From an uncultured Bacilli bacterium (GTDB taxonomy: Bacteria > Bacillota_I > Bacilli_A > RF39 > UBA660): a stretch of 36,525 nt of DNA. Shown here one piece after another: positions 1 to 36,525 of the stretch. The notes beneath the pieces are model-generated. The model ran no database searches and was not told where the DNA came from. It was given only the letters and a program-made list of their open reading frames with translations. Made by a program: the position numbers and the translations under genes. The DNA is taken from NCBI GenBank assembly GCA_944332105.1, contig CALVJI010000001.1, positions 1 through 36,525 on the forward strand. Reading direction: 5' to 3'. The first letter of the stretch is position 1. Every line of letters begins with the position of its first letter.

Positions 1-76
1 TACTTTAGAAGAGATTTTAGCCTTTAAAAAAGATAGTGAGTGATCACTACTTTTTCAAGTGGCTGTGAATTGTAAC
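1..76. repeat. Left arm of the terminal inverted repeat; positions 2..76 pair with 36449..36523
   Basis: The reverse complement of 36449..36523 equals 2..76 with one mismatch (t25 versus a). The arm holds 13 codons plus TGA of an ORF entering from the left edge, then 33 nt of 3' flank. A 10-bp palindrome AGTGATCACT (39..48) overlaps the stop codon. Confidence 0.9.
2..43 (+). CDS. 3' end of an ORF truncated by the window edge (..TLEEILAFKKDSE*); repeated-gene copy A, function unknown
   Basis: The frame is open from the window edge to TGA at 41..43. A near-identical peptide is encoded on the minus strand at the other end of the window. Confidence 0.5.
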   Translation, partial: TLEEILAFKKDSE

Positions 77-141
77 AGAAAATTATAGAAAAAAGTAGGA
101 AAATGGTGTAGAATATATAGCCAATAACAAGGAGTGATTAA

Positions 142-1566: not shown

Positions 1567-2653
1567 ATGAGTCCAAATGAACTTATCAACATTTTAAAAA
1601 ATTATCAAATAAGAGTCGAAGAACTTGGGAGGTCACTTTGACATAGAATCAAAGCAAAAAAGAATCGAGAAATTAGAACAAGAGACTCTTAAAGAAGATT
1701 TTTGGCAAGACATAAAAAAATCAAATGAGGTAAACAAAGAGTTATCTTCATTAAAAAAAATCACTTCTAAGCTTGCTAAGTTAACAACTGAAATAAAGGA
1801 TAACATAGAATTAATACCTTTACTAAATAATGAAGAATTATCCACGGTAGAAGATGAGTTATCCACAATTGAAAAAGAAATAAATGATTTAGAACTTGAT
1901 ACCCTATTAAATGGAGAATATGATAATTTAAATTGTTATTTAGAAATCCATCCTGGAGCAGGTGGGACAGAATCTTGCGATTGGGCAAGCATGCTCTTAC
2001 GAATGTATAAAATGTTTTGTGAAAAAAACGGATTTACTTATGAAGTGGTAGAAGAACAAGCCGGTGAAGAAGCTGGAATTAAAAGTGCCACTCTCTATAT
2101 AAAGGGAGAATATGCCTATGGTTATTTAAAAAATGAAAAGGGCGTTCATCGTCTAGTTCGTATTTCTCCCTTTGATGCAGGTAGAAGAAGACATACTTCC
2201 TTTGCATCTGTTTCGGTAACACCTGAATACAATACGGATATTTCCATTGATATAAAAGAAAGTGATTTAAAAATAGATGTCTATCATTCCAGTGGTGCCG
2301 GCGGTCAATCCGTAAATACTGCAAATTCGGCCGTTCGTATTACCCATTTACCAACAAAAATTGTAGTGACATGCCAAAATGAACGTAGCCAACTAAAAAA
2401 TAAAGAACAAGCTATGAAAATTTTAAAAAATAAAATTTACCAACAAGAACTAGAAAAAAAAGAAGCTGAACTTCATGCTTTAAAAGGCGAAAATGTCGAT
2501 ATTAATTTTGGCAGTCAAATTCGCAACTATGTATTAGAACCTTACAAATTAGTAAAAGATATACGCGTAAATTATGAAACAAGTAACACGGATAAAATAT
2601 TAAATGGTGATTTAAAAGAATTAATTGAAGCTTTATTAAAAAAGAAGGAATAA
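1567..2653 (+). CDS. prfB: peptide chain release factor 2, requiring a programmed +1 ribosomal frameshift at 1636..1642
   Basis: A 24-codon frame-0 leader (MSPNELINILKNYQIRVEELGRSL) ends at CTT TGA C. The +1 frame continues DIESKQ... and carries the SPF (RISPFDA) and GGQ (SGAGGQSVN) motifs. Confidence 0.93.
1627..1642 (+). promoter_or_regulatory. prfB autoregulatory frameshift site (internal SD-like GGGAGG followed by CTT TGA C)
   Basis: The sequence gggaggtcactttgac has the canonical spacing of an SD-like element, then slippery CUU and a UGA C stop. Confidence 0.9.
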
Positions 2654-16989: not shown

Positions 16990-17718
16990 ATGAAAAAAAA
17001 TATTTTCCTTTTAGTTGTAAGTATCATAGCTATTTTCTTTATGGCTCCAAACAAAGCAAATGCAGATACAGTAAATGTCTACTTTTTTAGAAGTAATACT
17101 TGTAGCATTTGTGCTTCACTTGAAGACTTTTTTGAAGAGTTATCTAGTGATGAAGAATATAAAGACTTGTTTGTGATTAAAGATTTTGAAGTAAGTAACA
17201 GTACGAAAAATGCTAGACTTTGGTCAGAAGTAGCCGAATATTTTGGTGATACAGCTAACGGTGTTCCTTATTATGTTATTGGGGATGAATCATTTTTAGG
17301 TTTTCAAACTTCAGATGAAGATACGATCAAAGAGAAAATCAAAGAAGTGTATAATGATGAAGACTTTGTAGATCCTTTGACAGATATCATGAATGATTTT
17401 GAAAATCCAAGCGATGATGGCTTAATTATTCTGGCTTTATTAGGTGGTATTATCCTTGTAATTGGTGTAATTGTCTTTATTGCAAGAAAAGATACGACAA
17501 AATTAGAAAAAGCAATAGTAGAAGAAGAAAAGAAAGAAAAAGAATTAGCGATTATAGCTAAAGAAGAAAAAGAAGAACCAGCAGCAGAAAAAGTAACACC
17601 AACAGCTAAGAAAACAACAGCGAAAAAAACTACTACTAAAGAATCAACAACGAAGAAAAAGACAACATCCAAAACAAGTTCAAAAACAACTACTAAAAGA
17701 AAAACAACTAAAAAATAG
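16990..17718 (+). CDS. exported thioredoxin-fold-like protein with a CxxC motif, a C-terminal TM anchor and a Lys/Thr-rich tail
   Basis: Signal peptide MKKNIFLLVVSIIAIFFMAPNKANA, a CSIC motif after the beta-strand VNVYFFRS, a TM segment at about residue 150, and a KKTT-rich low-complexity C-terminus. Confidence 0.6.
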   Translation: MKKNIFLLVVSIIAIFFMAPNKANADTVNVYFFRSNTCSICASLEDFFEELSSDEEYKDLFVIKDFEVSNSTKNARLWSEVAEYFGDTANGVPYYVIGDESFLGFQTSDEDTIKEKIKEVYNDEDFVDPLTDIMNDFENPSDDGLIILALLGGIILVIGVIVFIARKDTTKLEKAIVEEEKKEKELAIIAKEEKEEPAAEKVTPTAKKTTAKKTTTKESTTKKKTTSKTSSKTTTKRKTTKK

Positions 17719-17744
17719 AATCTACGAAACGATTCTATTTTTTC
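17711..17744. terminator. bidirectional rho-independent terminator between convergent genes
   Basis: Stem ATAGAATC/GATTCTAT flanked by an A run on the left and a T run on the right. Confidence 0.7.
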
Positions 17745-18265
17745 TTTAATAAATAATTTAAAATATCAATGACACTATATATAATGAGTAGAATTCCTAA
17801 TAGAACAAAAACAACATTCTCAGCAAAAATTGAATAAATACCAAGTAGTATTAATAAGACAGATACAATTAATGTAATTGTATAATAACGATTACTGCTA
17901 CTCTTATAATATGGAGCTGTTCCCAATTTATTTAAACCAGAAACAATTAACCAAATTCCTGTAATAATTTGAATAGCATTAGTCAAAAAACTGGCAAGTA
18001 AAATAGTTAAAATACCAATAATTAAACTTGTAATCGCGCTCATTAAAATCCGTGAATCTTCAAAGTGAAATTGATTTTTAATTTGATAAAAGCGAATAAA
18101 TTTATAAATGCCATACACACTTATAATTATTCCTAAAAAAATAAACAACGCACTTAAGACTCCACCAGAATTAAAAGCTAAGAACAATCCCAAGATAAAC
18201 AAAAGAATAGAACTAATAGGGAAATCATCACTTTTTTTCCCTGAATTTAAAACTGTAACTTTCAT
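17735..18265 (-). CDS. DUF308/HdeD-like membrane protein
   Basis: Six-TM small protein with repeated GI..I..G patterns. AAAGGAGG lies upstream of the second ATG (MKVTVLN...). Confidence 0.6.
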   Translation of the reverse strand: MKVTVLNSGKKSDDFPISSILLFILGLFLAFNSGGVLSALFIFLGIIISVYGIYKFIRFYQIKNQFHFEDSRILMSAITSLIIGILTILLASFLTNAIQIITGIWLIVSGLNKLGTAPYYKSSSNRYYTITLIVSVLLILLGIYSIFAENVVFVLLGILLIIYSVIDILNYLLKKK

Positions 18266-18319
18266 AATCCTCCTTTTCATAAAACATTATAGCATTATAT
18301 AGAAATAAAATAAAGAATA

Positions 18320-18328
18320 TGTTATAAT
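18320..18328 (+). promoter_or_regulatory. extended -10 element TGtTATAAT
   Basis: The sequence tgttataat lies about 25 nt upstream of the 18354 start. Confidence 0.45.
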
Positions 18329-18353
18329 TGAAAAAATAAATGGGGTCGAGAAA

Positions 18354-20087
18354 GTGAAAAAAGAAGCATTAAAAAAAATCATGACAATGTATGGCTTTTA
18401 TTCTTTAAACAAAGAACCTTTTTTGTATGAAAAAGAAACAGAATTAGGAATAGCCTATACTTTCAAAGACGATTTTTTTGGTGAATTAACACGCATATAC
18501 GTTCCCAAAAATGAAGAAGAAGCAACAGACTTTTTAGCTAAATATAGTTGGTATAAAAAATATGGCCAAAAATATCAAATTAAAATTGTCTTATCCGATT
18601 ACAAATTATATAATCCAGAAATAAGCTTTATAAAAGATGAAAAAAAACTATCTTTAGAAGGTATGAAGCAATTAATTGAAGATCAAGATGGTAAAAAAGA
18701 AACAACTAAAAAAGATGAAGCATATATTGAAAAATTACAAAGAACTCTTCTTTTACTAGTAGAAATAATTAAAGAAAAAATCAAAATTCAAGAAGATACA
18801 TATAAAAATTTATTTGAATTAACCAAGGAATTTCGGGCCAAACATAATCAATTAGAAAAATTAAAAAAAGAATATGATAAAAGAGCTAAAATAACTTTAT
18901 TACCTGAAGAAGAATTCACACCGTTACCAGACCTCACTAAAGAATTGAAAACCTTAAGTCAAGATATTGAAAAAATAAAAGAAAAAGAAGTTTTAGAACA
19001 ACAAATAGATGCATTTATTGAATATTTAAAAACCTTAGAAAAAAGTGAGAGTTTAATAAAAAACAAATACGAACTTTTAAAAATACCATTAGAAGTAGAA
19101 AATATGAATAAAGAAATTCAAGTATATGAAAATTTTGCTAATAAAAAGAAAGGACTATTTGCCAAAAAAGTATCTATATCTGAAGAATTAGCTAAAATAG
19201 AAAAACAAAGTGTTGTCTTACATATTGTTTCTTTTGAACAATTTAAAGAAAATGAAATAAAAAGAATTGAAGAAAAATATGCAATGATTCCCGATTTAGA
19301 TAAACGAACCATTAGTGATTTTCTTATTGAATTTGATAATTTAAAAGTAAAAGAGCCTCCTAAGAAAAAAGAACAACCAAAAGAAACAGAACTTTCATAC
19401 GAGGAAGTAATGGTTAAATTAGAAAAAGACTTTTATGAAAGAGGTACAAACGAACAAAAAGTATTAACAGTTTTCCATTCTATTGTAAGACCGATTTTAT
19501 TAAATAAGATCTATCGTGAAAAACAGATAGAAGAATTTATTACTTTATTAAATAACCCCAATAATATTATGATTCGTTTAAAATATTTTAAAGATATAGA
19601 TACGAGTTCACCACGCAAGTGCTACGATTCATTATTACTATATCGAAAAAATTTAGAAACGATCCAGCCAGATATTTTAGAAGGAACAATTAATGTTTTC
19701 TTTAAAGCAAATAAAGTACTAGACAATATAGAATATTTAGCCGTGACCAATAAAAGAACACAAGCTCCATCTCAAAATCTTGGCGAGAATGAAATTGAAT
19801 ACATTGCTTCTATCAAAAAATCGACGAAAGTATATTTTATTCCAACAGAAATTACTTATGATTTGGCCAGTGATGATACACTTATTCAAAAAAAGAATCA
19901 ACCTTTTTTCTTAATTGATGTACAAAAAAATACTATAAATACAGAAAAATCTGATATAATAAAAATTGTAAGATATCAACTAGAAAAAAAACAAGTAGAA
20001 CAAGAAACCATTGCAGTAGATATTAAAAGTCAAAAAATAGATCAATATAAGAAAATTATAATAGAAGGGAATGAGAACTTTGAATAA
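18354..20087 (+). CDS. large hypothetical protein (577 aa) with a Lys/Glu-rich coiled-coil central region
   Basis: Uninterrupted 1.7-kb ORF with a GTG start. No family recognised. Confidence 0.7.
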   Translation: MKKEALKKIMTMYGFYSLNKEPFLYEKETELGIAYTFKDDFFGELTRIYVPKNEEEATDFLAKYSWYKKYGQKYQIKIVLSDYKLYNPEISFIKDEKKLSLEGMKQLIEDQDGKKETTKKDEAYIEKLQRTLLLLVEIIKEKIKIQEDTYKNLFELTKEFRAKHNQLEKLKKEYDKRAKITLLPEEEFTPLPDLTKELKTLSQDIEKIKEKEVLEQQIDAFIEYLKTLEKSESLIKNKYELLKIPLEVENMNKEIQVYENFANKKKGLFAKKVSISEELAKIEKQSVVLHIVSFEQFKENEIKRIEEKYAMIPDLDKRTISDFLIEFDNLKVKEPPKKKEQPKETELSYEEVMVKLEKDFYERGTNEQKVLTVFHSIVRPILLNKIYREKQIEEFITLLNNPNNIMIRLKYFKDIDTSSPRKCYDSLLLYRKNLETIQPDILEGTINVFFKANKVLDNIEYLAVTNKRTQAPSQNLGENEIEYIASIKKSTKVYFIPTEITYDLASDDTLIQKKNQPFFLIDVQKNTINTEKSDIIKIVRYQLEKKQVEQETIAVDIKSQKIDQYKKIIIEGNENFE

Positions 20088-20670
20088 AGAAATGTTTGTC
20101 AAAAAATTAAAAGATAAATTAGATATTTTAGAAGATAGTGTTCAAGAAGAAGAGATTAATGAATATGTAAAAAAAATAGAGGAACAAGAAAAAAACGATT
20201 TAAAAGAAGAGGACATTATTAAATCATTTGGCTCTATTAATGAGATAAGTCGCAAAATTTTAAAAAAACATGGAATTAATCCGAATAAAGTTTTAAAGAA
20301 AGACCGTTTCTTATACAAGAAGTTTGAAGAACTATTTGAAGTGATTCACAAAGTAGTCGATGTGATGTCTAAAAATTCTTTAGAGGAAAATGCCAAAATT
20401 ATTTTAGATATTCTTATTCTAATCGCCTTTGTTTGTCTATTAAAGATTCCTTTCGTCGCGATTAGAGACTTAGGAGACAGTTTGCTTAGTTATACAAGTA
20501 TCCCAGTTTTATATAATTTATGGGGGATATTAATTGATATAATCTATATCATTGTCGCTGTATTTGTCTTTATGAATATCTTCACAAAATGGTTTAAAAA
20601 TTTAAAAAGCACTAAAAAATTAAAAGTAAAAAGTCTAGATACTGTTACTTTAGAAGACAAAAAAGAGTAG
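20080..20670 (+). CDS. DUF1700-like membrane protein
   Basis: The N-terminus MNKEMFVKKLKDKLDILEDSVQEEEINEY...EEDIIKSFGSINEISRKIL resembles DUF1700, followed by two C-terminal TM segments. The TTG start at 20080 is preferred because GAAGGGA lies 9 nt upstream; the track start at 20071 abuts that RBS. Confidence 0.55.
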   Translation: MNKEMFVKKLKDKLDILEDSVQEEEINEYVKKIEEQEKNDLKEEDIIKSFGSINEISRKILKKHGINPNKVLKKDRFLYKKFEELFEVIHKVVDVMSKNSLEENAKIILDILILIAFVCLLKIPFVAIRDLGDSLLSYTSIPVLYNLWGILIDIIYIIVAVFVFMNIFTKWFKNLKSTKKLKVKSLDTVTLEDKKE

Positions 20671-27122: not shown

Positions 27123-27757
27123 ATTACCATGAAGACGATGAATTTTTATTTGACATGATCTCAGAAAGCAATGAAGAAGTACGAGATAGTTTATATGAAA
27201 GGTATATTCCATTAATAAAATACTTAACTAAAAAATATGTTCGCAGTGCTCAAAAATATGGACTAGATTACAACGACCTAATCCAAGAAGCCAATGTAGG
27301 TTTTGCCGATGCTTTAAATAGCTATGATGAGCAGAAGGACGCGAGTTTAAAAACATTTATCACCCTTTGCATTGAAAGACGCCTCATTAATGCCATTCGT
27401 AAAGCTCAATCAAATAAAAGCCAACAAGATAAAAGTAATCTTTCTTTAGAATATGATTATGATAACAATGGTCAACCATTAATTGAAGTGCTTCGTGACG
27501 ACACGATGGATCCATTGCTTCACTTTAGCGAACAAGAAAGTGAAGAAGCTTTGTACAAAAAAATTGAAAATGAACTATCGGAAGGAGAATATACAGTTTT
27601 CACTTATTTGTTAAATGGCCTAAATTATAAAGAAATTGCACTTTTACTTGACAAAACAGAAAAACAAATTGATAATACAATTCAAAGAATTCGTAATAAA
27701 ATTCGCAATCTTTTAAAGGAGGAAGAAAAATGGCCAGAAGAGAATGGAAAAAAATAG
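27119..27757 (+). CDS. sigH: RNA polymerase sigma factor, SigH-like
   Basis: Region 2 and region 4 patterns resemble B. subtilis SigH (DLIQEANVGFADALNSYDEQKDASLKTFITLCIERRLINAIR; YKEIALLLDKTEKQIDNTIQRIRNK), and the rlmB-sigH-secE-nusG synteny is conserved. TTG start preceded by GGGGGGA. Confidence 0.8.
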   Translation: MNYHEDDEFLFDMISESNEEVRDSLYERYIPLIKYLTKKYVRSAQKYGLDYNDLIQEANVGFADALNSYDEQKDASLKTFITLCIERRLINAIRKAQSNKSQQDKSNLSLEYDYDNNGQPLIEVLRDDTMDPLLHFSEQESEEALYKKIENELSEGEYTVFTYLLNGLNYKEIALLLDKTEKQIDNTIQRIRNKIRNLLKEEEKWPEENGKK

Positions 27758-28416
27758 GCATAGGTGCAATACTATGTATCCTTTTAATTTTAATTATGTT
27801 AAGCACTTTAACTTTTGAGATGACTAAAGAAGACACTTTTGAAGATTTAACCAATAAACCAAACGAACTAGATAGTTTAGTTTTTAAAAATGAAAGTGAT
27901 CTATCAGAAGAGGAAGTAAGCGAGATAGTAGAAGAAAAAAGAAATACTTTAAAAGATTTTTTTGAAAGTGCCACTTACTATAAACCAAGCGAAATAAACA
28001 GAGAATATACAAGTGCAGATGATGAAAACTATTTAGTGGTAGATGAAAGTTTCTTAAATGAATTAAATGCTCTTGTTACTACTGAGATTTATAATAGTTA
28101 TTTTGAACAATTTGTAGAAATTACGAAAGACCAAGATGTCGCGATTACAGAAAGACTCTACCGCGGTCCTAAAGACATTTTTGATGATTTATTTTATAAA
28201 AGTGCTATTGCCATGATCGACGTGAATGAAGAAAAAACACTGTTAGATCGCGCTACAAACGAGTACATAAGTGCAGTTATTAACATTAGATATTGTGATG
28301 AAGAACAACCAGATATTTGTTCCAAAAATGAATATTATGTTTTTGAACTACAAAAAGAAGAAAATGATTGGCAAGTTGCCGAATTTACTGAAGAGAAAAA
28401 ATTGAACAAAGCTTAA
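27730..28416 (+). CDS. hypothetical single-pass membrane protein overlapping the sigH 3' end
   Basis: Strong RBS AAGGAGG inside sigH, 7 nt before the ATG. An N-terminal TM segment (IGIGAILCILLILIMLSTL) is followed by an acidic extracytoplasmic domain. Confidence 0.7.
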   Translation: MARREWKKIGIGAILCILLILIMLSTLTFEMTKEDTFEDLTNKPNELDSLVFKNESDLSEEEVSEIVEEKRNTLKDFFESATYYKPSEINREYTSADDENYLVVDESFLNELNALVTTEIYNSYFEQFVEITKDQDVAITERLYRGPKDIFDDLFYKSAIAMIDVNEEKTLLDRATNEYISAVINIRYCDEEQPDICSKNEYYVFELQKEENDWQVAEFTEEKKLNKA

Positions 28417-28448
28417 GAAATTTTTCTCTTTTTTTTCTGTGCAATTTT

Positions 28449-28457
28449 TGTTATACT
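28449..28457 (+). promoter_or_regulatory. extended -10 element TGtTATACT
   Basis: The sequence tgttatact lies about 26 nt upstream of the ATG at 28483. Confidence 0.4.
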
Positions 28458-28482
28458 TTTTTTAGTAGAAAAGAGGATATGA

Positions 28483-30136
28483 ATGAAAAAAGCGTTAAAA
28501 ATAAGTATCCTCCTAACCAGTCTAATCATTCTGGGGGGGGGGTATACTGAATAAGGAAAATTCTTTCCAGAATGACAAAGAAACTTTAGCAATTTATGTA
28601 GGTGAGAGTAAAACAGATGGGATTCCTTCAAAAGAAAACTATATTTTTGAAAACGCTGTTTGCACAGTCAATGGTAAAACAGATGAGACAGTGAAAGTCC
28701 TATGGGATGAAGAAGCATGGGCACCTATCCTGTATAATTTAAAAGATCATTCAACAAAATGTACTTTATATTTTAAAGAAAGATATCAAGAAGAAATATT
28801 AAATGGAGCAGATCCGGTATTACAAAATGATTTAATACCAGTTACAATCGATAATGATGGAACCGTAAAAAAAGCAGACTTAGGAAGCAAATGGTATAGT
28901 TATACAGATAAAGAATGGGCAAATGCTGTTCTCTTGTTTGATAATACGGTTTATTATGAACCAGGAGAAACGATTTCAGAAGAAGCAATTGAATCGTACT
29001 TTGTCTGGATTCCAAAATACAGATATCAATTATGGGATTTAGGAGACTATGATGGATTAACAGCTATTGATACAACTAAAGTTCACGAAATTCCTATAAT
29101 TTTTGGAGATTATAATACGAGTGATTCTGTCAATGGTGAATGCACCACGCCAATGGAGTCTGGCTCATCTGGTAATTGTGAAATTGGTGATTATATGACG
29201 CATCCTGCATTCTTAAGTATTCCAAGTACAGGCTTTTGGGTTGGCAAATTTGAGACCGGATATAACGGTGCAACTAGTAGTAGTGAAGCTTTGAAAAATG
29301 AGAATGACGCGAGCAAAGTAATTATAAAACCGAATACGTATAGTTGGCGAGGAAGCCAAGTGGCTAATGCTTTTTACACCTCTTATAATTATAAACGAGA
29401 GTTAGATAGTCATATGATGAAAAACACAGAATGGGGAGCAGTTGCGTATTTACAACATAGCGCATATGGTTCAAGTACAAATATTAGACTAAACAATAAT
29501 TCTTCATATTTAACAGGCTATCAAGCCAATAATGAACCAACATGTGGCATAACTGGTACGAACATAGAATGTAACAAGCATTGCAACGATGAAAGTTGCA
29601 ATACACCTTATCCTAATAGTAATTTAGCAAGTACAACGGGAAATATTACAGGCATTTTTGATATGAGTGGTGGAGCTTGGGAATACATTATGGCAGCTAT
29701 TGTAAACCAAAGTGGTGAGCTAGTCAGTGGTCGTAATAGTTTGTATAACTCAGGATTTAATGGCCCATTCGGATGTCCAACTTGTGATAATAATAATTCA
29801 GGTATTACTGAGTTAACCACAGGAGTTACTTGGCCAGATAAGAAATATTATGATGTATACCAATATGGTAATAGTCCGTACGATGGCATTAGAAGAATAC
29901 TAGGCGATGCTACTAGTGAAATGGGACCATTTAATCGTACTCAATATGTTGAAGAATATATGCCTGTGATTAGTAGCTGGTATGAAGACTCGTTTTACAT
30001 GATCATAGTAAGTGAACCGTGGACAATTCGAGGAGGCAATTTTTCTTATGGGGCAAACTCTGGAATATTTTCATTTGAAAACCATTATGGAGCCGTAGCC
30101 AATTATTCATTTCGTCTTGTGCTGACTCCTGTTTAA
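28483..30136 (+). CDS. secreted FGE-sulfatase (SUMF1)-like domain protein, split by a G10 tract (frame OFF as sequenced; G9 gives an intact 550-aa protein)
   Basis: AGAGGA lies 5 nt upstream of the ATG at 28483, which encodes the signal peptide MKKALKISILLTSLIILGGG. After the G tract this frame stops at 28552. The +1 frame is open from 28526 to 30136 and carries FGE-like motifs (THPAFL..GFWVGKFE, FDMSGGAWEYIMA, WTIRGGNFSY). Confidence 0.75.
28533..28542 (+). repeat. G10 homopolymeric tract (candidate slipped-strand phase-variation switch)
   Basis: Ten consecutive G residues at the junction of the signal peptide and the mature protein. It is the only G/C run longer than 6 that I saw in the window. 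Confidence 0.9.
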
Positions 30137-35199: not shown

Positions 35200-36437
35200 T
35201 AAATAAAATAAACAAAGCAATTGCTTTATTACTAGTTGTATCATCATTTCTTTTAGCTATTCCAACTGCCATGGCCGACACGGCAGAAACATTAGGCGAA
35301 TTAAAAGCCGAATACCAAGCTAAATTGGATGAACAAGCTAAAAATGAACAAATGACAGAAGAGGCAAAAGCCCAAATTGCTCGTAATGAAGCATTAATTG
35401 ATGATGCCGAGCAAAAAATTCATGAAGCTGAAGGTGAAATGGAAGTAGCCCAACAAAATATTGATGCTTCAAATGAAAGAATCGCGGGTTTAACAGAAGA
35501 AGCAAATAATGTTCTTTTATATTTACAACAGATGCAAAGTCAAAATGCCTATGTCGAATATGTTTCAGGGGCTACGACTATCACAGAAATGATCACGCGT
35601 ATCGCAGCAGTGGAACAAATTTCGGATCATATTCAAACAACGATGAAAAACTTAGAAGAAGAAATTAAAAAAAATGAAGAGCTAAAAGTTGAATTAGAAG
35701 AAAAGAAACAAAAACTAGAGCAACAACAAGTAGAATATCAAAATACGATTAATTCATTATATGATGATATCGCTGAATACGACAAATATGCTCTCGATAT
35801 TGATACACAAGTAGCTTCTTTAAAAGACAAATTGGATAGTGCCGAAGATATGTGTGCGAAATGGGCCCCAGAAAAAGGCGATGATGCAATTATTAATGTA
35901 GATTGCGTTGAACCAGTTTATGATGAAAATGGCAATATTATTTCTATTATAAACACAGGATGGCTAAAGCCTTTAAATTCTGGTAGAATAACGAGTGAAA
36001 TTGGTTATCGCTGGGGCAGTTACCACAATGCTCTTGATATTGGAGGTAACGCCGAAGGTACACCAGTTTATGCTGCTGCAGCTGGCGTTGTTTCTGGTAA
36101 AGTATCTCGTTATCGTTGTGGTGGTAACATGTTATACATTGATGTAAATGTAAATGGAGTTGCATACACGACTTACTATTATCATTTATTAAGCTTTGCA
36201 GTAGATATAGGTGATGTTGTAACAACCGACACTGTAATTGGATATGTAGGTGGTAGCTCAACATCAACCACTCATGGTGGCTATGATAGTTGTACTACTG
36301 GTGCACACCTTCACTTTGGTGTAGCTTTAGGCTACTATAATGGGTATTCTGTTCCAAGTAGTAATGTAATTACTCCACCTGGATTCCCAAATCAATATGG
36401 TTGGCGGTTCTATACTCGTTATCAAATGTATGGGTAG
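35196..36437 (+). CDS. secreted coiled-coil M23 family metallopeptidase (EnvC/PcsB-type partner of FtsEX)
   Basis: Signal peptide, a coiled coil of about 200 aa, and LytM motifs HNALDI (HxxxD) and GAHLHFG (HxH). Confidence 0.88.
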   Translation: MINKINKAIALLLVVSSFLLAIPTAMADTAETLGELKAEYQAKLDEQAKNEQMTEEAKAQIARNEALIDDAEQKIHEAEGEMEVAQQNIDASNERIAGLTEEANNVLLYLQQMQSQNAYVEYVSGATTITEMITRIAAVEQISDHIQTTMKNLEEEIKKNEELKVELEEKKQKLEQQQVEYQNTINSLYDDIAEYDKYALDIDTQVASLKDKLDSAEDMCAKWAPEKGDDAIINVDCVEPVYDENGNIISIINTGWLKPLNSGRITSEIGYRWGSYHNALDIGGNAEGTPVYAAAAGVVSGKVSRYRCGGNMLYIDVNVNGVAYTTYYYHLLSFAVDIGDVVTTDTVIGYVGGSSTSTTHGGYDSCTTGAHLHFGVALGYYNGYSVPSSNVITPPGFPNQYGWRFYTRYQMYG

Positions 36438-36448
36438 ATCAAAAAAGA

Positions 36449-36525
36449 GTTACAATTCACAGCCACTTGAAAAAGTAGTGATCACTCACTATCTTTTTTT
36501 AAGGCTAAAATCTCTTCTAAAGTGT
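36449..36525. repeat. Right arm of the terminal inverted repeat (pairs with 2..76)
   Basis: See the left arm: 74 of 75 positions are identical in inverted orientation. Confidence 0.9.
36482..36524 (-). CDS. 3' end of an ORF truncated by the window edge (..TLEEILALKKDSE*); repeated-gene copy B
   Basis: Minus-strand frame open from the window edge to TGA (36484..36482). It differs from copy A by one residue (F to L). Confidence 0.5.
   Translation of the reverse strand, partial: TLEEILALKKDSE

Follow-up and report, generated by a model that had tools for sequence, protein, structure and literature searches.

The near-perfect inverted repeat that brackets this stretch of DNA (the window, 36,525 nucleotides in full) very probably consists of the tips of two opposed copies of one multicopy insertion sequence (IS), at each of which short-read assembly broke off. 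In both copies the visible tip is End A, the transposase-3′ end, and the element itself appears to be a 1,796-bp member of the IS66 family. Here we set out how the arms were traced to this element, how each copy came to lie where it does, and why the repeat stops at the edges of the contig.

A repeat search of the window pairs positions 2–76 with 36449–36523 as an inverted repeat of 75 nt with 99% complementarity, and ranks second an inverted repeat of 44 nt with 73% complementarity. Direct comparison places the sole mismatch at window position 25, T on the left versus A on the right once the right arm is reverse-complemented, so the 75-bp inverted repeat with one mismatch described in an earlier note on this DNA is indeed there. 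The coordinates also agree with that note on the sharp inner ends, which fall at 76/77 and 36448/36449, and on the spacing of the right arm, which begins 11 nt past the stop of an M23 peptidase ORF ending at 36437. The 17-mer at the inner end occurs at two sites only in the window, even with up to three mismatches permitted (0.13 chance matches expected). The outermost bases of the window are repeat as well: the right arm matches the element through position 77, and the left arm spans 76 nt of it with the final base mismatched.

Each arm further contains the 10-bp palindrome that the earlier note had pointed out, AGTGATCACT. It is kept in the closest IS variants, takes the form AGTGA-N5-TCACT in one related IS and is missing from others; with conservation limited to the closest variants, it was rejected as a functional site. 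By estimate, the chance of a 10-bp palindrome within 76 nt is ~6% under uniform base composition, which is not improbable. The arms were also considered as an RNA gene, which was ruled out by tRNA and Rfam scans that returned nothing in the window, the IS or the contig L048 described below.

Table 1. Coordinates of the IS-related features, given as window positions unless a contig is named; a point in the strand column marks a feature assigned to neither strand.
Feature	Position	Strand	Basis
Left arm: last 76 nt (End A) of an IS66-family IS, transposase reading inward	1..76	+	Reverse complement equals L018 1-76 except last base
Terminal inverted repeat of the IS, left copy, GTTACAATTCACAGCCA	60..76	-	17-bp perfect inverted repeat between L018 ends; two window matches only
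10-bp palindrome AGTGATCACT, inside the IS, overlapping the transposase stop codon	39..48; second copy 36477-36486	.	Window sequence
Inner copy of 9-bp target-site duplication AGAAAATTA, left insertion	77..85	+	Empty site compared with outer junction
TAG, orphaned stop of the upstream 184-aa ORF	86..88	+	Empty-site contigs, read-through proteins
Predicted 9-bp target-site duplication CAAAAAAGA, right insertion, in the 57-nt M23-whiA spacer	36440..36448	+	Length inferred from left copy and related ISs
Right arm: last 77 nt (End A) of second, opposed IS copy, transposase reading inward	36449..36525	-	Equals L018 1-77 except position 52
rplM-upstream flank junctions of the P0079-type IS	L045 1876-1889; L047 930-943		

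Searching with the inner-end 30-mer of the arms gave 0 matches among viral contigs, a single contig end among species-representative genomes (L013, from a MAG of an uncultured Bacilli bacterium) and five contigs in the metagenome collection. Four of these five open at a depth of 54–55 nt in the repeat, and the remaining one, L018, is a complete IS. This 1,796-bp contig starts GTTACAATTCACAGCCACTTG... and ends ...TGGCTGTGAATTGTAAC, both ends being the repeat's terminal sequence, and its perfect terminal inverted repeat is 17 bp long (GTTACAATTCACAGCCA; stated for the element as 16–17 bp, GTTACAATTCACAGCC(A)). It is covered 66x, about four times as deeply as three contigs from its own assembly that run out inside the IS (14–16x). 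The earlier note's core proposal, that the window lies between two inverted copies of a longer repeated element, is therefore upheld, with this IS as the element.

L018 carries one 531-aa ORF; the remaining ORFs are ≤50 aa and lie within it, on either strand, and neither tnpA nor tnpB appears among the ORFs listed for the 1,796-bp element. The encoded protein matches Pfam PF03050 DDE_Tnp_IS66 (E = 2.6e-15, 57 bits against a cut-off of 23.1) over profile positions 3–278 of 284, and NCBIfam NF033517 'IS66 family transposase' (E = 1.3e-51, 175.9 bits) with a score just below, by 4 bits, the equivalog cut-off of 180. Its sequence also shows a CxxC...CxCxxC zinc-finger-like motif and, towards the N terminus, a coiled-coil-like region. 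Homologues number 586 at E ≤ 1e-10, mostly on contigs of ~1.7–2.5 kb, and PF03050 is found in all 120 homologues listed except one truncated fragment. The nearest annotated IS66-family transposases, drawn from the plasmid collection only, are ~27% identical. Taken together, the NF033517 score under 180 and this low identity suggest that the element is a divergent member of the family, and its domain content places it in the single-ORF ISBst12 group.

Canonical IS66 members are 2.0–3.0 kb long and the IS described here is shorter, at 1,796 bp; they carry three ORFs (tnpA, tnpB and tnpC) as opposed to its one 531-aa ORF, although its catalytic transposase is homologous to TnpC. The length range of the ISBst12 group includes 1.8 kb. 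Termini in the IS66 family start GTAA, whereas the inverted repeat of the window IS starts GTTAC instead, and target duplications in the family are 8–9 bp. A single ORF without tnpA and tnpB defines the ISBst12 group, examples being ISBst12 of Geobacillus stearothermophilus and ISDge4 of Deinococcus geothermalis (PMC12898284). The window IS is like these elements in its single transposase ORF with an IS66-type DDE domain and in its short target duplication on insertion; its hosts are uncultured Bacilli seen only in metagenomes. ISDge4 has the terminal inverted repeats GTGACTACTCAGCA and GTAACTGCTCAGCA and duplicates 8 bp of its target (PMC12898284). The terminal repeats of the window IS are similar and begin GT-AC, while its 9-bp duplication is one base longer.

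How do the two arms relate to this element? Read as codons, positions 2–40 of the left arm give ...TLEEILAFKKDSE, followed by the stop TGA at 41–43; the right arm encodes the same peptide with Leu for Phe, and the gene points inward at both ends. The substitution stems from the SNP at IS position 52, TTA (Leu) in the right arm versus TTT (Phe) in the left, and translation of the contig L004 yields the same transposase C-terminus in its Leu variant, ...ALKKDSE. Position 52 of End A (window 25 and 36500) is in fact tri-allelic—A, T or C on the End A strand, with the codons TTT (Phe), TTA (Leu) and TTG (Leu)—and each allele is stably tied to particular insertion sites across samples, making it usable as a marker for individual IS copies. 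The arm mismatch is thus a copy-specific coding SNP, and the arms therefore come from two real copies. More broadly, End A abuts no fewer than nine distinct flanks (the window's left and right ends, L013–L017, L020 and L021). IS copies of the window lineage are a 94%-identical variant of L018 (P0001; L019–L024 and L048), with an End A identical to that of L018 apart from position 52.

The left copy arose by simple transposition, which duplicated 9 bp of the target. The left site is empty in seven contigs that come from other samples and share the window's first ORF in identical form; their junction is ...CTATTTAAA/AGAAAATTATAG (here and below a slash marks the insertion point or IS boundary), and they extend collinearly upstream, taking in a 184-aa ORF as well as a carbohydrate kinase gene. 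Another contig, L012, has the IS at the left site as in the window. The insertion precisely separates the last sense codon of the 184-aa ORF from its TAG stop. Read-through of this ORF into the IS was predicted, and the 90%-identity cluster does contain 195-aa and 206-aa members. These read-through proteins end ...KRKL-VTIHS(R/Q)RNKSG..., which corresponds to the full ORF, the 9 bp AGAAAATTA and the translated terminal repeat, VTIHS... being the translation of GTTACAATTCACAGC. At the DNA level, the outer junction ...AAAAGAAAATTA/GTTACAATTCACAGCC is present in L048, a k=31 Logan contig (ERR9612718) made up of the 184-aa gene, the 9 bp AGAAAATTA, the whole IS and then 211 nt (2606–2816); the read-through proteins P0122, P0129 and P0131 show it in translation. 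It is from these proteins and the L048 junction that a simple transposition with a 9-bp duplication follows. An exact look-up of fusions built with L018 End B found none at any assumed duplication length, because the lineage carries the other IS variant, and a contig look-up for P0131 returned none.

At the right site, too, both alleles are represented. The empty site reads ...GATCAAAAAAGA/TTTACCTTTTTTTT in L049, L050 and L052, and five contigs with a 99%-identical M23 peptidase read ...GATCAAAAAAGA/TTTACCTTTT...; empty-right-site contigs run collinearly into whiA, clpP, gap, pgk, tpi, spo0A and gpmI. Where the exact M23 protein of the window is encoded, all four contigs carry the IS at the window's position: L001, L003 and L004 share both the right junction and the position-52 SNP, and L002 shares the junction and ends 30 nt into the IS, before the SNP. 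A 9-bp duplication at the right copy would give an outer junction of ...GGCTGTGAATTGTAAC/CAAAAAAGATTTACCTTTTTTTT-whiA. Related ISs assembled in context have 9-bp target duplications at five independent sites. Occupied and empty alleles thus exist at both window sites, and at least nine distinct insertion sites are seen; such polymorphism between strains, along with the multicopy state, indicates that the IS is probably active in transposition.

The length of the arms has a technical explanation. Among twelve contig ends that enter the IS, eleven stop at a characteristic depth: 30 nt in the Logan contig L002, 54–55 nt in six contigs, and 76–77 nt in L003, L013 and both window ends (76 left, 77 right). 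L004, the exception, extends to a depth of 131 nt. The depths at the other eleven ends resemble k or k−1 for k = 31, 55 and 77, a pattern that de Bruijn-graph assembly would produce on halting at a multicopy repeat, and the window is presumably a whole contig. It follows that the length of the arms is technical and the repeat itself real. The earlier note had listed k-mer overlap in the assembly graph among the things that would undo its claim; this turns out to hold for the arm lengths of 76 and 77 nt, which the assembler's stop sets, and not for the repeat, which is genuine.

The events behind the window can then be pictured as follows. Two copies of a probably active 1,796-bp, single-ORF IS66-family element have inserted in opposite orientation in the chromosome of this strain, presumably by the usual DDE mechanism: one cuts the 184-aa ORF off from its own stop codon, directly after the last codon, and the other lies 11 nt past the M23 peptidase stop and upstream of whiA. 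Both face the intervening 36.4-kb segment with End A. Given many copies of the IS, the assembly graph would branch inside each, and the contig would end about one k-mer (76–77 nt) into either copy. Two such stops would leave what resembles a 75-nt, near-perfect 'terminal inverted repeat'.

The segment enclosed by the two copies has ~30% GC, positive GC skew throughout and roughly 45 ORFs, nearly all on the + strand. Matches in Pfam and NCBIfam include an exonuclease III-like nuclease, prfB, tilS, ftsH, parA, parB, mscS, an AbgT transporter and ychF; a radical-SAM protein, CoatF, typA/bipA, a GGDEF protein, a SpoU methylase and a sigma factor; and secE, nusG, LemA, GerQ, ftsE, ftsX and the M23 peptidase. 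Phage or plasmid replication and structural genes are absent from the Pfam and NCBIfam matches in the window. Judged by these matches, the window is a piece of chromosome with housekeeping and sporulation genes, from an uncultured, low-GC Bacilli bacterium that forms spores. To call the genes mostly essential, as the earlier note did, is overstated: many are housekeeping genes (prfB, tilS, ftsH, parAB, ychF, typA, secE, nusG and ftsEX), but sporulation, membrane and unknown proteins are also encoded.

Several features of this gene content merit a mention in their own right. The prfB gene (window 1568–2653) has the classic +1 programmed frameshift: ORF0, with its ATG at 1568, leads into GGGAGG tca CTT TGA C (about 1627–1645), and the main ORF, 1625–2653, reaches 485 bits against NCBIfam TIGR00020. 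GC content is lowest (25–27%) at window positions 16990–20670, where three ORFs of 242, 577 and 199 aa are without a meaningful Pfam or NCBIfam match; this block may be specific to the lineage or acquired. Two further ORFs, of 228 and 481 aa, at 27730–30136 between the sigma-factor gene and secE-nusG, likewise have no family match. The expected neighbours of nusG are rplK-rplA; in the window, nusG is instead followed by the LemA gene on the opposite strand.

Viewed in isolation, an inverted repeat at both window edges is exactly what automated pipelines would flag as 'ITR', and the earlier note had raised true terminal inverted repeats as an alternative. Yet it is scarcely credible that the window is a complete 36.5-kb linear replicon or phage genome: its genes are chromosomal housekeeping and sporulation genes, its arms are the end of an IS present at many other loci, and no viral contig matched the arm sequence. 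Moreover, contigs from other samples pass both ends collinearly, those with empty sites running into chromosomal genes on either side, and the occupied allele likewise continues past the left arm into the rest of the IS and then the 184-aa gene (L048). The opposite suspicion, that a chimeric or fold-back read or a graph overlap generated the repeat with no real element behind it, could draw on the resemblance of the arm lengths, 76 and 77 nt, to an assembler k-mer size, but is just as hard to credit. The junctions recur in independent samples and through different pipelines (ENA contigs with NODE_ and scaffold_ names, and Logan contigs), each arm's own SNP is reproduced in other samples, and a complete IS with transposase and target duplication was recovered. 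Both the linear-replicon and the pure-artefact readings are refuted.

More deserving of thought, though improbable, is that the two IS copies are coupled, either because recombination between them flips the 36.4-kb core segment or because the pair forms a ~40-kb composite transposon that moves by its outer End B termini. Two inverted 1.8-kb copies, near-identical over the visible 76 nt, are a valid recombination substrate, and IS–IS recombination could in principle invert the 36.4 kb. The contig L048, which links the left IS copy to an unrelated flank, and several copies of related ISs that are without target duplications may be footprints of such recombination; against this, the duplication-free cases are short-read contigs crossing a repeat and may be chimeric. 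An inversion keeps both inner and both outer junctions and would therefore return the same contig reverse-complemented, so short-read contigs are uninformative on orientation; SNP linkage, too, would be altered only by a crossover in the 52 nt closest to End A. No second orientation was observed. In IS-free alleles the segment is in its native position, collinear with flanking genes that share its strand, whereas the inverted state would set ftsH, nusG, secE and others against the strand bias of genes and the GC skew. If that bias marks the leading strand, inverted genes would meet replication head-on. Uniform gene orientation, GC skew and the co-oriented flanks of IS-free alleles together suggest that the inverted state is likely to be selected against. 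As for a composite transposon, the arrangement does recall those of the Tn5/Tn10 type, in which two inverted copies of one IS surround a segment. Such a unit would show one outer duplication and none at the inner ends; here the left copy has a duplication of its own (as is assumed for the right), and each site has an IS-free allele. Nor is the cargo typical for a transposon: the 36.4 kb between the copies belongs to the core chromosome and keeps its native synteny, and IS-free alleles show it collinear with its flanks. The left copy's own duplication and the IS-free allele at each site point to two independent insertions rather than one composite transposition.

Two opposed insertions of a multicopy IS, cut short by the assembler, are a real but ordinary mobile-element feature and would not surprise a specialist. 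The main value of the finding is as an example of how IS-bounded contigs imitate inverted terminal repeats. Contigs that viral-contig pipelines flag as 'ITR' complete genomes likewise carry, right at either end, an inverted repeat of at least 20 bp; in the window, this repeat is assembler overhang into two IS copies, and the molecule continues. Caution is thus warranted wherever an inverted repeat at both contig ends mimics the terminal repeat of a complete linear genome. The analysis also documents a divergent single-ORF IS66-family element with a 9-bp duplication, polymorphic in an uncultured, spore-forming Bacilli lineage. Both insertions lie at gene ends: one replaces a stop codon, and the other separates whiA from the upstream M23 peptidase gene. 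A bolder view, in which the segment with parAB, ftsH, nusG and secE flips within the population and the duplication-free junctions of L048 and related ISs are the footprints of frequent rearrangement, strikes us as a long shot. Were it true, gene orientation relative to replication and transcription would change, and whiA and the 184-aa ORF would be uncoupled from their neighbours.

The duplication-free junctions nevertheless invite description. In L048, the flank at 2606–2816 begins AAGTTTTGCTTGACTTTTGAAGG... and carries no target duplication. It matches neither window end, nor the fetched loci, nor viral contigs, and has no informative ORF and no Rfam match; L048 may be chimeric, or else it records a genuine rearrangement, mediated by the IS, in another strain. 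Several contigs with related ISs are also without target duplications, and these could be chimeric joins across the repeat in low-coverage assemblies or real IS–IS recombinants. For a related 1,875-bp IS (the P0079 type), one sample has End A next to a flank upstream of rplM, and another sample has End B next to that same flank, which implies either occupancy of one site in opposite orientations or rearrangement. A sister IS of 2,002 bp (L025 1248–3249; L026 125–2126; L027) encodes a transposase that is 77% identical and has an extra 84-aa ORF, without a Pfam match, upstream of the transposase gene. In L026, this sister IS lies 65 bp from a second, different IS66-family element.
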